This document shows, one piece after another, positions 1 to 6,225 of a stretch of DNA of 64,000 bases. Each line of letters begins with the position of its first letter. Position 1 is the first letter of the stretch. The translations under genes and the position numbers were made by a program. The notes beneath the pieces are model-generated. The model saw only the letters and a program-made list of their open reading frames with translations, was not told where the DNA came from and searched no databases. The stretch comes from Moniliella sp. 'wahieum'. Lineage: Eukaryota. The DNA is taken from contig RSEE01000013.1 of assembly GCA_003971905.1 (NCBI GenBank), forward strand, positions 248,001 through 312,000. Direction: 5' to 3'.

Positions 1-2253
1 ATGTGACAGGGAGCTCCTCGCCTCAGCGCTCAGCGCCTCAGCTTCAAGCTCCAAGCTTCAAGCTTCAAGCCCAGTGTTTGATGCTTAGTTTTGCTGCGTT
101 GGCATGTCGCCCTCTGTCCTGCTTTGCACACCGCCGACGATGAATGGATCGGCATTGCGAGGTTCACGCGCCGCTGCTACATCATGCATCATCCATCGTC
201 TATCTGATCCCAGAGCGTCCTTGGCCGCATGGGTGGCAGGCGCGCGGTGTGTGCGGTGGGTGTGCCAGCGCCGACCCCCCCAGCACGGCTCCAGTCTCAC
301 CTGTCGCATCTAGTTGGCAGTCCTATCTTGGGCGGGGATCGTCGTCCGTGTCGCCTCGCCTCCGGCACGAGTGGCCTGCCGCTGCGAGCGCCGCGGATTG
401 GATCGCACATTTTAGAGCTGCGAGCAAGCAGCTGCACTGCCGCTCCGCCACGCACGGCAGCACTCTCCACCCCTGGCCCCCTCGGGTTGGCGCGAAGCCG
501 ACGATGGGTGATGCATGATGCCTACATGATCGATGATCGCCATCCAGCAGCGCTTAGCGCTTCGCTTCTTAGTATTTGCGCGTATTCGCGCGGGAATTGC
601 CGGCCGAAAAGGCCATGCCATTCGGGGGGGCATGCACGTGACAACCAACACGTACGACATACCCGTCGTTACGCATTCTCAGTATTCAGTTGTGCGTTAC
701 GAGGCCCTCACGGGACCTACACCCTTCTCTGTTGGTCCGCCCCAGCAGGTCCCAGCCTATCTTCGTGCTGGCAGCGACGATCCTCGATCCACGGCCATCT
801 TTCCCCTCTTGTCCACCGTTCCATATATAGTCCACCATCCCATCGCCCACGCTCCCCACCGTTCCAGCATGCAGCATAGGTTAACATTCCATCATATTCA
901 GTGTGGCGTAGCACGCCGTTCCGTTGTCATTACAGTAGCAGGAAAGCATGGCAGTCAGTAGCAGGAAAGCGGGGACGATGTATCACCCACAGAGGTTCAG
1001 GTGGCCGAAAAGATATACACAGCGTCAGGGCGCATTCTGTACCTGTTATCACGGACGGGCGCAGGCAGAGGGCCCGCCCCCGGAGGGTTTAGGCGTATAA
1101 CCCCTTGGAGGTCCTAAGGTCGACTCATGATAGTTACGCGCTTGGTTTCATTGGTGGGTCCGAGGGGGCTAGGGACAAGGAGAGGCCTCTATGCGTATAG
1201 CAGAGGCGGCTACAGGTGTGGCAAGGCTGCGTAGCTCCGGCTTGGACGGCAGTAGCGTGTCTGAAGCCTTCAGGCTCAGGGACGGGGAGGAAGCAGCGGA
1301 CGGCCTACGCTGCTGGACTGAAGCGGGACTGGGACTGGGGGCGGCATGGCTGATGTAGGCGGGATCACACGCGGCTGAACTGAACTGGACTTGGACTGGG
1401 GAACAAAGACTTGAAGACGGGAGCTGGAGGAAGAACTAAGAGGAGGAGTTGCCTGTACTGATCTGAGATGAGATCAGATCGAAGCTGACCGGCCTGACTC
1501 CATGACCAACCTGGTGACGGGGCTAGCAAGGTGAAGGGCGCGCGTAGGCTCCATGACGTTTGTTATGTGATACGACGGAGAGCTAGGTCCGGCTTATCGA
1601 TCGATAGCAGACCCCTGAGGACCTGACTCTTGGTTACTGCTCCGTCTGGAAACCCCGCCGAGTGATCCTTCTTGACCAGGATGGGCCACCGTATCAGCCA
1701 TGCTTCCGTTAACCACATGACTACTGTCCACCAGCGTTGATCGTTAACTGTAGACACTACAGCCACTGTTCCACCCGTCGTGGGATGCTACCGCACAGCC
1801 ACTGTTTCCATCGTCCATGCCATGGCATGGGGGGCAACGCGGTGACGGCCAAGTTACATTTACGGGGCGCTCCGGTTATCTACGGACTCAAAGAGCCGCA
1901 TGTCGTACTCTAGACATCTCATCCAAACACGCCTCAGTGTCCGGTTAGACTGGCGAGAGAGATCCAGTGGACGCGTGTTATCCATGCTGCGGATATCATC
2001 CGCGGTTCGCCATGGTCGCATGGGCACATCGGTATACGATGTTTTGTGCCCATCGCGCCCAGTCTTGGCAGAACCCGTTACCTGCTGCGCCCGAATGTGA
2101 AGCGTCAGTGCCCTGGAAACCACAGGTTCCGTATCTCTTCGGAAGGTCCCCCACATTCCATCCCTACGTTATATTATTCCTCCACGAGGAGACCACCGGG
2201 CCTACGGCCCGGTCAGCTGGGGCTTCGCCCCAGCTTGGTGCTGCGTCGCAGCC

Positions 2254-2370
2254 GCCACCGTAGCCACCGTTCCCCCGTCGCCACCTTAGCCACCGTTCCC
2301 CCGGTCCACCATTGCCACCTTAGCCACCGTTCCCCCGGTCCCCCGTCGCCACCTTAGCCACCGTTCCCCC
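2254..2370 (+). repeat. Four copies of 23-nt GCCACCKTAGCCACCGTTCCCCC with short spacers
   Basis: Copies at 2254, 2280, 2314 and 2348, with spacers of 3-11 nt. A related inverted copy lies at 3451-3480. Confidence 0.9.
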
Positions 2371-2402
2371 CTTCGCCAGCGTAACGCCAGCGCTGCCGCG
2401 AG

Positions 2403-3254
2403 ATGTGGGAGCAAAGTCGACAGGAGCTGCTCCAGAAGCTGGACGCTGCCGATGGTCGCCATGTGGTTGAGCACAGCAACCCGCTGAGCCACAACTGGTT
2501 CTCCGCCATTCCGTCCGTCCCGTACCTCAAGCTCTCCGACCAGCAGGTCCAGGTCGGTCTCCAGCTCCGCACGCTGTGCCGCACCACGCGCAGCATGTGC
2601 AAGTGCGGCGTCATGTCCTCGCTGGAGCGCATCATGTCTTGCACCCGCTCCCAGGCCAAGTTTGGTGCGTTGCATGACGCAGTGCGGGAGCCCATTCTCC
2701 AGCTTCTACGCTCCATCCCCGACACCCATGTCCGCAACGAACCTATGGTGGAGGACGAGGATGGGAGAAGACAGAGGACGCAGCGCACCGACTACCGCGT
2801 GATGGGGCCCGGAGCACTCGGAGGATCAGGAATGGAGGTAGACCACACGCTGCGCGACACGGGATCACTGGCGGCGCAGAGCGCGTTCCGGAGGGTGGTG
2901 CATGAGAGCACCGCAACCCCCTTGGAACGCCGGGAGAAGGAGCTGCTTCGGATGCTTGAACAAGCAGAATGCGACAAGAACGCCAAGTACCAGGGACGCA
3001 CTCAAGAGCCGTTTTTCCCCCTGGTTTTGACGACGCGAGGATACTACGGCACCAAGACGGCGGGCAAGTTGTTCGCGCATTGGAAGGAGTTGGCTACTAA
3101 GTCTCAGTGGAAATGGTTCCTCGCTCGGATGTCAACCACGTTCCTCCGTGTCCACACGCGCTTCCTGGGGTACGGGACCGGATGGCGTGAGCCGGAGGGT
3201 CCTGATATCCTGGCGATCCCCTGGTTCCTTAATCTTGGTGGCGCTTCCAAGTAA
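2403..3254 (+). CDS. C-terminal Zn-knuckle + restriction-like endonuclease region of a CRE/Cnl1/MoTeR-like non-LTR retrotransposon (5'-truncated, 283-codon open frame)
   Basis: CKCG-x6-R-x3-C knuckle (His replaced by Arg), LHD (RHD equivalent), EP..RTD..EVD..DKNAKY..FFPLVLTTRG RLE motifs. Clear similarity to the minus-strand copy (WEQSRQELLQKLDAADGRHVVEHSN vs WEKGPQELLKNLNGADGRNIVEHSN). Similarity extends upstream of the ATG to about 2385 (RQRC), so the Met is internal. Confidence 0.8.
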   Translation: MWEQSRQELLQKLDAADGRHVVEHSNPLSHNWFSAIPSVPYLKLSDQQVQVGLQLRTLCRTTRSMCKCGVMSSLERIMSCTRSQAKFGALHDAVREPILQLLRSIPDTHVRNEPMVEDEDGRRQRTQRTDYRVMGPGALGGSGMEVDHTLRDTGSLAAQSAFRRVVHESTATPLERREKELLRMLEQAECDKNAKYQGRTQEPFFPLVLTTRGYYGTKTAGKLFAHWKELATKSQWKWFLARMSTTFLRVHTRFLGYGTGWREPEGPDILAIPWFLNLGGASK

Positions 3255-4813
3255 CCCCGCAAGATGAACGGTTAGGTTTAGACGTAGCGTTCCCCCTGTC
3301 CCAGCCTTAAGCTCTGTCAATGAAATGGACGTGACTTAGAGATTCGCCCTGTGCACTTTTACATCAGCTGCCCCGTGCCACGTTCCACGCCCCTGCACCC
3401 AGAACCAATCGGTGATATTTTATTTCTATGTCGGTGTTGGCGACGTGTGAAACGGTGGCTACGGTGGCGAAGGGGGAACGGCAGCTGGGGCGAAGCCCCA
3501 GCTGACCGGGCCGTAGGCCCGGCGGTTCTCCTTGTCTATAATACCCGTCATGAGGCACTTGAGGCCTGAGGCCTGATGGTTCCTTCTGCACATAAGCAGC
3601 CCTGCCTAAGGCTTGCTAACTGTGGTCCTGATCGATCATCCTGCCCCAGTTCCAACCGTTCCATTCCTCTATCGCCCGTCCACCTTCTACCACCACCCTT
3701 ACGACGACTCCTTTAAGAAGTACGACCTGACACGTGCGATCACATGTGTCAAGAGCTGTGACAAGGGATGTGACATGTGATGTGACATGTGACGCATCCC
3801 CATGGGGAAAGGGGATTGAAATGTGCAATGCGAACCCGCAGCGCGGTCGTCGGTACGCCGACAAAAGAGCGCGGCTGGAGACTGGCTCGCTTATGCTGTC
3901 ATACCCAACGCTCGCGCCATTGCCCACCACCATCGCCACCACGCGGATCGACTTGGGGATGGAATGTGCGACCAGTGCGGATGGGAAGCCATGCGACGCT
4001 TTTTTGCGGCCCCTGCATGACCGCCTCCATCTGCCTCGCTGATTCTCCTGGGTCAGGGGCAACGGCGGATGAAAGCCCCATCCCAGTTGCCGCCGAGTGA
4101 CCCAGCCCCCGGCCATGGTACCACAAGGCCCAAGTCAAAAAGGACCACCGGGCCACATGTCCACATGCCCAACCCAGACTTCCAAAAGGTACGTCGAACC
4201 GCACAGGCCAAACCTTTCTGGTTGGCGATTGTAACGTGCTAGATCAAGGCTATGTGTGTCTGATCGAGAAAACGTGTTTGATTCTGGAAGCGCAGACCGG
4301 AAGAAGATCGATCGCAGCCGGAAACGGAGGAGAATGGAGGTTGTGCCTCCTTCGTCAGAGAACCGGGGGAGAGGATCAGGGTACTTGTGATGGTGGCGAG
4401 CAGCCCACAGATACAAAAAAGCCGTTAATCATCAAGGGGAGACATTGTCCCTGCAGCGGAGCCTGAACAGGGAGCGCCCGACCTCTGGCCATCAGCCTTG
4501 GGTGCCCGATGGGAGGCCCGCCCCCTGCATTACTTGGAATGATAACCCGTGTGGTACGAGCACGCCACGATCGGGACCCGACCGACCCGGTGTCGATCGC
4601 ATTTGGGGATGGCAGAGGGGGTGAGGTGGCACGAACCACTTCGGTACGGACGATCTGTTGGGGACGAGGCAAGGTGCCACTGCGTGCCGCGTCAATGCTG
4701 GCGACCACCAGAAGAAGGGCGACCGGACCCAGTCGATGCGAGTCGGCCCATTCAGTCTCGGTTGACGGTGGGGGCATGGACATTGTGTCGGTACTGGGGC
4801 GCATACATGTCTA

Positions 4814-6225
4814 TCAAAGAACGTGTGCGCTCTTCAAAGGCCAACCCACGCTCAGGTGTACAGCTTTTTGCGGAACTGCACTGCACACTCCGGGAAGCGA
4901 CATCAGACTTGGCCCAGATACGTCTGTACAACGGAACAGTGGCCTTCTGGACTTCCCCCCACACCCCGTCGCGTCCTCTTGCTCAGTCGGTTCGTTGTGG
5001 ATGTCAATTCCCGGGATGGAGCGCACAAGATTGAAGGTTGGCTCCCGCCGAGCCTCGTTCGATGCGCCTGTTTGGACTGGGTGTGGGTGCAAGCCAAGAT
5101 GCTCCCAAGCGAGGAGATCAGACCACAGTTGCACTTGCTGCGCGAGGAACGGGACAGGGTACTGGAGACTAATCTGACTCTGCTTGCCGGAGAGCACGAG
5201 AGGTACTTGGTTGCTGGCATTGGGGCAAGTCAAGTGCAGTTGAACGCCATTGCTGTGCTCAACGATATTGCGCCCATCGGCCCCGTTGAGGTTCTTGAGT
5301 AGCTCTTGAGGACCCTTCTCCCACTTCTTCCAACAGCGCTTGTGCTGTGTCGTAAATGCGTTTGCCGTGTATGCGCGTGGGGGCAACAAAAGTGTCAATA
5401 AGATGGTCGTTGACCTCATTGACCGCAGCACACGCGTGGAGCGCAATGTGCTAACAGAGCGGAAAGCCGCATCCTCCCATCGAAGAGGCAGGCTCATGAG
5501 GGTGTCGAAGTGATCGGCCTTCCTCCCTTGAGGGTCCTCGTTCTCTCCGATCCGCCGAAACTCCGTGCGGATCGAAGCGTCAATCTCGGCTAGCACATTG
5601 TCCTGCTCTCCCACCATCTGCATGATATGAAACCAGCAGGGGTGCAGCTTGGTCTGAGGATAGTCTGGCCATATATAAAGAGGCGTCCTTGAAGGGTGAT
5701 GCTATCAAACTCAGATGCGTTCAGCCTCAGGTGTCACGACCACAGTGATGCACCTAATCTGGCCCTATACTAGTCCCGTTCGACCCACACTCGCGGATTG
5801 AGGGCGAGACCCTGACGTGTCTCCATATCCAAAATCATGGCTCCACAGGCGGAGAGGCCTGTCTCTTAGCCGAAAAGGATAATCTCGTCCAGCTACGTCG
5901 TCACGAGGTGACCCATCCCAAGCTTGGCTTGCAACTTCTCCAAACTTGGCCGCACCGCAATGAAGAAAAAGAAAGGGGCGAGGGGGTCGCCCCTGTCGAA
6001 CACCGTTGTTCCCGTCCGAAGCAACCCGAAGCTGGATGGGTGCCATAGATCCACCGGCCCAAAGAAAGGAGATAATAGTGGGCCTAACAGTGGGGCGTGT
6101 TGACGAGTGTGCGACGCACAATCGAGCATGGCGGTGTGGTTGAATTTGCTTAGCTCCAGGACCTCCTCCCGAGTTGCCGCTGTTATGCGCTCGACCATCC
6201 TCCGCACGATAATGCTGGGGGCTGT
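4814..6225 (-). mobile_element. Degenerate CRE/Cnl1-like non-LTR retrotransposon (RT plus start of the RLE region)
   Basis: RT motifs across frames: ELSKFN, GVRQG/GDPLAPFFF (about 6010-5960), and YLDD decayed to *LDEII (5895-5878). The downstream frame 5623-4814 aligns with the ORF at 2403. Multiple stops and frameshifts. Confidence 0.8.

Follow-up and report, generated by a model that had tools for sequence, protein, structure and literature searches.

Nested elements in the window

The window analysed here is the whole 64,000-nt stretch of Moniliella sp. 'wahieum' contig RSEE01000013.1 from position 248,001 to 312,000 (forward strand), and the genome searched is a 69.5-Mb eukaryotic assembly. 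Within its first 4 kb, a repeat resembling a solo long terminal repeat (LTR) contains a short Helitron-like element (mini-Helitron A), which contains a second one (mini-Helitron B), which in turn contains the truncated 3´ part of a non-LTR retrotransposon; this nesting is evident from comparison with other copies of each layer. A sequence-only reading had described positions 2185–3534 as one unit, possibly a DNA-mobilised cassette with a stand-alone restriction-like endonuclease (RLE) gene between outward-facing Helitron-like ends. The features on which it was built are present. The inverted repeat spans 2192–2235 and 3483–3526 (44 nt, 98%) and is perfect over 2196–2235 and 3483–3522, the 23-nt subterminal repeats lie at ~2280–2370, and the open reading frame (ORF) runs for 283 codons from an internal Met, ATG 2403, to the stop at 3254 and includes no reverse transcriptase (RT). 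Each end carries two hairpins that fold as DNA with z = -4.8 and -4.2 (0 of 200 shuffles as good), and the ends read as Helitron termini, CTCG|T at 2185 on the minus strand and CTTG|T at 3534 on the plus strand. The two ends, however, belong to two nested elements, the outer of which begins at 2161, outside the presumed unit. The alternative offered at the time, a 5´-truncated CRE insertion with small Helitrons on either side, is nearly right, but it does not place the retroelement within a single mini-Helitron, at an insertion site that recurs across the genome.

Mini-Helitron A is present in two pieces. Its 5´ end (2161–2184, plus strand), with an A|TC start, is identical to the start of the intact copy L033, which consists of TC, ~215 nt, two hairpins and CTTG; the remainder (3343–3534, plus strand), with hairpins at 3482–3504 and 3506–3522 and the CTTG|T end, matches the same copy. 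Joined together, 2161–2184 and 3343–3534 are L033 split at a single A|T, with nothing lost or duplicated. Mini-Helitron B entered at an A|T site, of which the A at 2184 forms the left half, and the insert (2185–3342) is this second mini-element in the opposite orientation to A. The 3´ part of B (2185–2378, minus strand), which comprises GC-rich 23-nt repeats, two hairpins and the CTCG|T end, matches the copy L140 with one difference over ~195 nt, as read by eye, and ~110 nt of B are absent beside the retroelement. The junction is filled by 4 nt (2379–2382, plus strand), and the last bases of B, CGCCA, resemble the retroelement start (microhomology). The retroelement 3´ part (2383–3333, plus strand) is 5´-truncated, ends without poly(A) and corresponds to ~2726–3680 of the 3.7-kb natural copy L087; contigs from two public runs continue at 2383 into native upstream retroelement sequence. 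The 5´-terminal 9 nt of B (3334–3342, minus strand; TC start at 3342–3341) lie beyond the retroelement insertion. Because B is nested antiparallel in A, the 40-bp inverted repeat is a by-product of the layout. At L050 the identical site holds a nest with the same antiparallel arrangement, in which the retroelement is reduced to ~45 nt.

The outermost host is a multicopy repeat whose relatives start TGTTAC, and its label as an LTR is suggested by this TG start. The left part (1860–2160, plus strand) is matched by 40 of 40 scored candidates at 79–83% identity, excluding the window itself. The right part (3535–3704, plus strand) is colinear with the left, and in six relatives 3541–3704 is matched directly after the left part; A splits the repeat without duplication. 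The retroelement may have entered B before or after B moved. A flank search for a homeologous empty site of the nest returned the solo-LTR family only, and contigs from the two public runs cover pieces of the nest, none spanning the whole. Colinear long pairs at 92–95% identity (L102–L105, L108–L111, L114–L115 and L118–L119; contig pairs C39/C15, C22/C20 and C56/C59) suggest a hybrid or allodiploid assembly.

The retrotransposon family and its RLE fragment

The genome search with the window unit yielded 1164 candidates, and all 40 that were scored are 91–100% identical to the window from 2383 to ~3340. Copies of the family extend upstream into the RT, up to ~3.7 kb, and bear 5´ tandem repeats. 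In the natural copy L085, an RT (RVT_1, E = 7e-17) lies upstream of a CCHC knuckle and the RLE in one ORF, and all five matches in a PDB sequence search are R2 proteins. The source of the window ORF is a high-copy, ~3.7-kb RT+RLE non-LTR retrotransposon that is CRE-like as judged by motif spacing. In 88 copies covered across both junctions (50 chimeric, with a mini-element upstream, and 38 lone), the starts form a truncation ladder over positions 1–3647, and the 3´ end is fixed. An A-run (at least 6 A in the first 20 nt past the end) follows only one of the 88; the lack of poly(A) pointed out by the sequence-only reading is real but is a family trait and not distinctive. Short target duplications occur in 8 of the 38 lone copies (permutation mean 0.7). 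A TA motif lies within the last 12 nt of the flank in 25 of 33 lone copies (five rows with short-element flanks dropped), compared with a background of 19%. The mini-element was considered as the retroelement 5´ untranslated region and rejected, as the longest copies (L087, L092, L089, L084 and L080) are devoid of it. At L084 (4530–4601), the near-full-length retroelement starts ~30 nt downstream of a tRNA-Thr gene.

The ORF (2403–3254, plus strand) encodes a linker, the CCHC knuckle and the RLE. Its predicted structure has a mean predicted local distance difference test score (pLDDT) of 87.8, and the seven best Foldseek matches of the model are R2 retrotransposon proteins (E = 2e-6 to 1e-3). 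Among 177 protein relatives, the ORF aligns to the C-terminal part of ~1000-aa proteins, and the relative P0001 is 76% identical; a Pfam search with the ORF alone returned nothing above the cut-off. By eye, the ORF follows the motif spacing C-x-C-x7-H-x3-C-x9-RHD-x19-33-E-x9-21-RxD-x12-14-D/E given as the SLACS/CRE RLE consensus (PMC12857005), with LHD replacing RHD. The predicted structure and the CRE-type spacing agree with the RLE identity proposed from the letters, and the knuckle His is indeed replaced by Arg.

The ORF is a dead fragment of the retroelement insertion and ordinary debris. Its open frame had been regarded as special, but 8 of the 42 copies with full ORF coverage are open to the same C-terminal motif. 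The His-to-Arg change (2628–2630) is private to the window (0 of 42 copies), and the only public-run contig that covers 2629 keeps the His codon. Four changes in total are absent from the 42 copies, two replacements including the knuckle His and two silent, which is too few to show selection. The window is one C shorter at 3218–3221 than 27 of the 42 copies, which places its last ten residues in a shifted frame; the extra C is also absent in the other 15 copies, yet present in the contigs of both public runs, and either a variant or a sequencing error may account for the missing base. Frame-breaking 1-nt indels are found in many of the 42 copies and may be assembly errors. The supposed sister copy at 4952–6201 (minus strand) turned out to be a frameshifted, older RT/linker fragment of a different, related family (71% nt and ~41% aa identity to the young family).

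The family shares with the CRE group (Cnl1, MoTeR1, FoTeR, CRE1/2, SLACS and CZAR) a single ORF with an N-terminal Zn finger, an RT (YLDD) and a C-terminal CCHC+RLE, as well as 5´ tandem repeats and many 5´-truncated copies. Unlike members of that group, the copies are dispersed and do not lie in telomeric repeats or spliced-leader genes; they favour the mini-Helitron 5´ end, and RHD reads LHD.

The short elements as probable HLE1-type mini-Helitrons

The mini-elements are 200–400 nt long, start with TC, end with a hairpin followed by CT(A/C/T)G and are inserted at A|T, often into each other. The 24-nt hairpin motif has 285 genomic matches at no more than 2 mismatches, and the reversed control has none. 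The 115 distinct hairpin ends comprise 52 CTAG, 32 CTCG, 27 CTTG and 4 others; a T directly follows all 111 CT(A/C/T)G ends, and the distance from hairpin to end is 11–12 nt in 91 of 108. In complete solos, the expected flanking base is present on the TC side in 30 of 34, and flank matches of at least 7 nt occur in 2 of 34 (permutation 0.9), neither of them flush, which indicates no target-site duplication. Nine candidate empty sites were found, of which four or five are informative (L038/L092, L064/L178 with L065, L062, and L181/L158), the others being tandem copies. At these sites the junction T is kept without flush duplication, as is also seen for the window against L033 and for A against the LTR relatives. 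L062 contains one precise head-to-tail CTAG-TC joint, which is the joint of Helraiser circles (PMC4778049). From these features we infer that the short elements are non-autonomous HLE1-type Helitrons, with a mobility that would be driven by RepHel.

The 5´ TC, the hairpin 11–12 nt before the end, insertion at A|T, the lack of duplication and the CTAG-TC joint are shared with HLE1 Helitrons such as Pleurotus HELPO2 and Helraiser, for which defining traits have been described (PMC4289320, PMC11417382). The CTTG end of HELPO2 is a precedent for CTTG (same sources), and the portions of the Helitron literature cited here contain none for CTCG. The present elements differ in their tandem pair of hairpins (triloops GAA and GTA), their many CTCG ends, their highly variable first 10 nt and the lack of a matching autonomous partner in the genome searches.

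Several features of the short elements stand beside this assignment. Among 88 scorable ends, five (L032, L039, L050, L057 and L162) have a first hairpin whose loop reads TTC in place of GAA, a small inversion inside the palindrome. In the solo mini-elements at L159, L135, L152, L184, L090 and L042, the first ~20 nt contain short tandem duplications; at L159, 8 nt are repeated exactly at the retroelement insertion point, like a cut-and-fill scar without cDNA. At L156, L176, L088, L145, L061, L067, L091 and L093, a full element comes after the 5´ ~90–100 nt of a second copy, and the join lies at one internal A|T site; this arrangement is consistent with nesting and subsequent termination at the 3´ end reached first. 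RepHel-like relics were seen at C83:57322–57851 and C6:15426–16077 (72–76% and 40–49% to the C15 relic). Window positions 859–1010 match L123 (1148–1296) at 78% identity, a C93 region in which a RepHel relic adjoins a degenerate hairpin end, and this shared stretch is possibly an older, longer relative.

Retrotransposon fragments at mini-Helitron 5´ ends

Occupancy was sampled at 59 out of 100 listed exact-motif sites, mostly loci not already analysed, which were selected by the hairpin alone. A retroelement fragment in the same sense starts within 520 nt at 27 of the 59 sites, and none is present at 28, compared with 1, 2, 1, 2, 1 and 0 of 59 in six control windows further downstream. The insertion point lies ~9–10 nt inside the 5´-TC end, at a TATA/TATG motif on the opposite strand, and in some cases 7–10 nt of that end are duplicated. 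Of the 50 chimeric copies, 39 have an entire mini-element end after the retroelement, as against 10 of the 38 lone copies (Fisher p = 1.5e-6); with four copies re-sorted, the counts are 42/54 and 8/34. The upstream mini-element and the tail share a duplication of at least 7 nt in 11 of the 50 chimeras (permutation mean 2.0), similar to the rate in lone copies, and the two agree variant for variant within L188, L068, L161, L183 and L050. More than half of the junctions (27 of 50) end no more than 4 nt from the TATA-like motif at the start of the tail. Among 30 copies selected by the mini-element alone, CTAG, CTCG and CTTG elements are distributed over three retroelement 3´-end types as 11/1/2, 0/6/0 and 0/0/10, respectively (p = 3e-9). 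A purine-rich tail was rejected as the genomic target consensus, since empty sites lack such a tail.

The biases in position and orientation, the duplications and the subfamily pairing are directly visible in the aligned copies. The fixed orientation fits both an insertion and a jump of the RT, but the completeness of the ends, the duplications and the junction position favour insertion. The explanation that accounts best for these results, and in which we have reasonable confidence, is a nest of elements together with a retrotransposon that prefers the 5´ end of mini-Helitrons as its landing site.

It is unlikely that the mini-element is instead a partner RNA on the other strand, resembling a short interspersed element (SINE), to which the RT jumps from broken retrotransposon RNA, with the shared tail as the mark of the partnership. 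The fixed co-orientation, which extends to short-long-short-long chains in L085 and L090, and the terminal motif common to both elements would suit such a partner, as would the failure to find an intact RepHel and three solos that lack their terminus and have flush duplications. A jump at the far end should leave the priming end unaffected, however, whereas completeness of the tail differs between chimeric and lone copies. The variant-for-variant match of end and tail and the rarity of flank matches in complete solos also speak against it. Partial copies in the best-matching set begin at one internal A|T (3 at query 47–48 among 42 matches) with no truncation ladder, and neither a tRNA nor an Rfam origin was found: the Rfam scan of the mini-element gave no match below E 0.6 (two chance miRNA matches), and the tRNA scan of four loci with the mini-element was negative.

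Helitron capture is very unlikely. A mini-Helitron would land upstream of a truncated retroelement, adopt a TC in the retroelement tail as its new 5´ end and move as a composite. TA-rich flanks are favoured by both elements, and Helitrons do capture flanking DNA, but the published route is read-through at the 3´ end (PMC4778049). The mini-element's own last 9–10 nt lie beyond the retroelement and are sometimes duplicated, and no junction is common to two loci (0 groups among 50 chimeras), so nothing here supports the movement of composites. At L043–L047, five near-identical chimeras on five contigs have both flanks in common and spread within a larger repeat.

The cassette of the sequence-only reading, with ends like terminal inverted repeats and a mobile stand-alone RLE gene, is the least credible explanation and can be regarded as refuted: the 283-codon frame is open with a predicted RLE fold and the outer element A, whose ends are intact, might in principle transport B together with the ORF, but in the genome search the complete unit was matched at no locus other than the window, no chimeric junction recurs with different flanks, nesting accounts for the inverted repeat (as at L050), the His-to-Arg change is confined to the window, and the four private changes are too few to show selection. 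Helentrons (HLE2 with an apurinic/apyrimidinic endonuclease, APE) likewise place Helitron-like DNA beside a nuclease of non-LTR origin. They carry short terminal inverted repeats and use T|T as their target (PMC11417382, PMC4289320), whereas here the ends are HLE1-type, the target is A|T, no RepHel lies in the unit, and all that represents a nuclease is one dead fragment of an RLE.

A number of observations weigh against the preferred explanation, insertion of the retrotransposon at the 5´ ends of mini-Helitrons. The fragment is in the opposite sense at 4 of the 59 sites, and 38 of the 88 sampled copies have no hairpin upstream, which makes the targeting a preference only. The subfamily pairing could come from shared age. 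Whole chimeras have a 7–8-nt match of left and right flank in 4 of 40 cases (permutation mean 0.5), some of which are tandem-repeat targets or not flush. In the window, 1 nt of the 9-nt tail deviates from the terminal sequence of B's subfamily, and the assembly contains many 1-nt indels. As for the Helitron assignment, CTCG or CTTG stands in place of CTRR at 59 of 111 ends. The search for a RepHel element with matching ends gave relics only (3 PF14214, 10 PF05970, mostly host-like PIF1, and 8 protein matches); none of the relics examined has matching ends in the right orientation (the C83 and C6 relics were unread), and the C93 relic is accompanied by a degenerate hairpin that points in the wrong direction. 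Solos at L147, L148 and L057 are without their last ~10 nt and have flush 8–10-nt duplications, as in retroposition. These three still end at A|T, and neither model alone accounts for them.

A mechanism can be proposed on these grounds. RepHel supplied in trans would copy the mini-elements into A|T sites, and the retrotransposon would integrate by target-primed reverse transcription after TA-rich sequence. Its RLE would nick the Helitron-sense strand 9–10 nt inside the TC end, and retroelement RNA with a 3´ end resembling the mini-Helitron end would prime there, possibly through pairing of a read-through tail. The terminal 9–10 nt of the mini-Helitron would remain outside the insertion and look like a tail. 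Second-strand joining would yield a flush 5´ side, a 7–10-nt duplication or a deletion, and in the window it would have left the ~110-nt deletion and the 4-nt filler.

A bolder view, which we hold only tentatively and consider doubtful, is that the retrotransposon is a hyperparasite of rolling-circle transposition, which cuts 5´ ends, perhaps on circles or integration intermediates, gains pairing read-through tails and is locked in a subfamily-by-subfamily chase. Such a chase would account for the restriction of high variability to the first ~10 nt of the mini-Helitron. Retroelement fragments could then spread as DNA, within nested composites whose outer ends are intact, as at 2161–3534.

Known targets of RLE non-LTR elements include rRNA, snRNA, spliced-leader, microsatellite and telomere repeats. 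Tx1L and Tx2L of Xenopus target the DNA transposons Tx1D and Tx2D and resemble the present family as non-LTR elements that use another transposon as target. Transposons are among the non-LTR targets described (PMC4640811, PMC8869645), but the Tx1 clade uses an APE nuclease (same sources), whereas the present family has an RLE, inserts into a rolling-circle element and shows a preference that is not strict. The accessible part of PMC3706591 holds nothing further on Helitrons. No report of an RLE non-LTR element targeting Helitrons was found in a literature search whose scope excluded Repbase Reports, supplements and most subscription papers. Helitron targeting by an RLE retrotransposon is probably a new variant of the retrotransposons that target transposable elements. 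If so, the Helitron 5´ end would be a new target class for RLE elements, with about half of the sampled sites occupied, and the matching subfamilies would be a natural record of shifts in RLE specificity. For annotation, such targeting explains the false 'nuclease cassettes' and 'terminal inverted repeats' that turn up again and again in this genome. Insertion may inactivate the Helitrons by separating the 5´ end from the body, and the mini-Helitron, itself a parasite, appears to serve as landing site for a second one.

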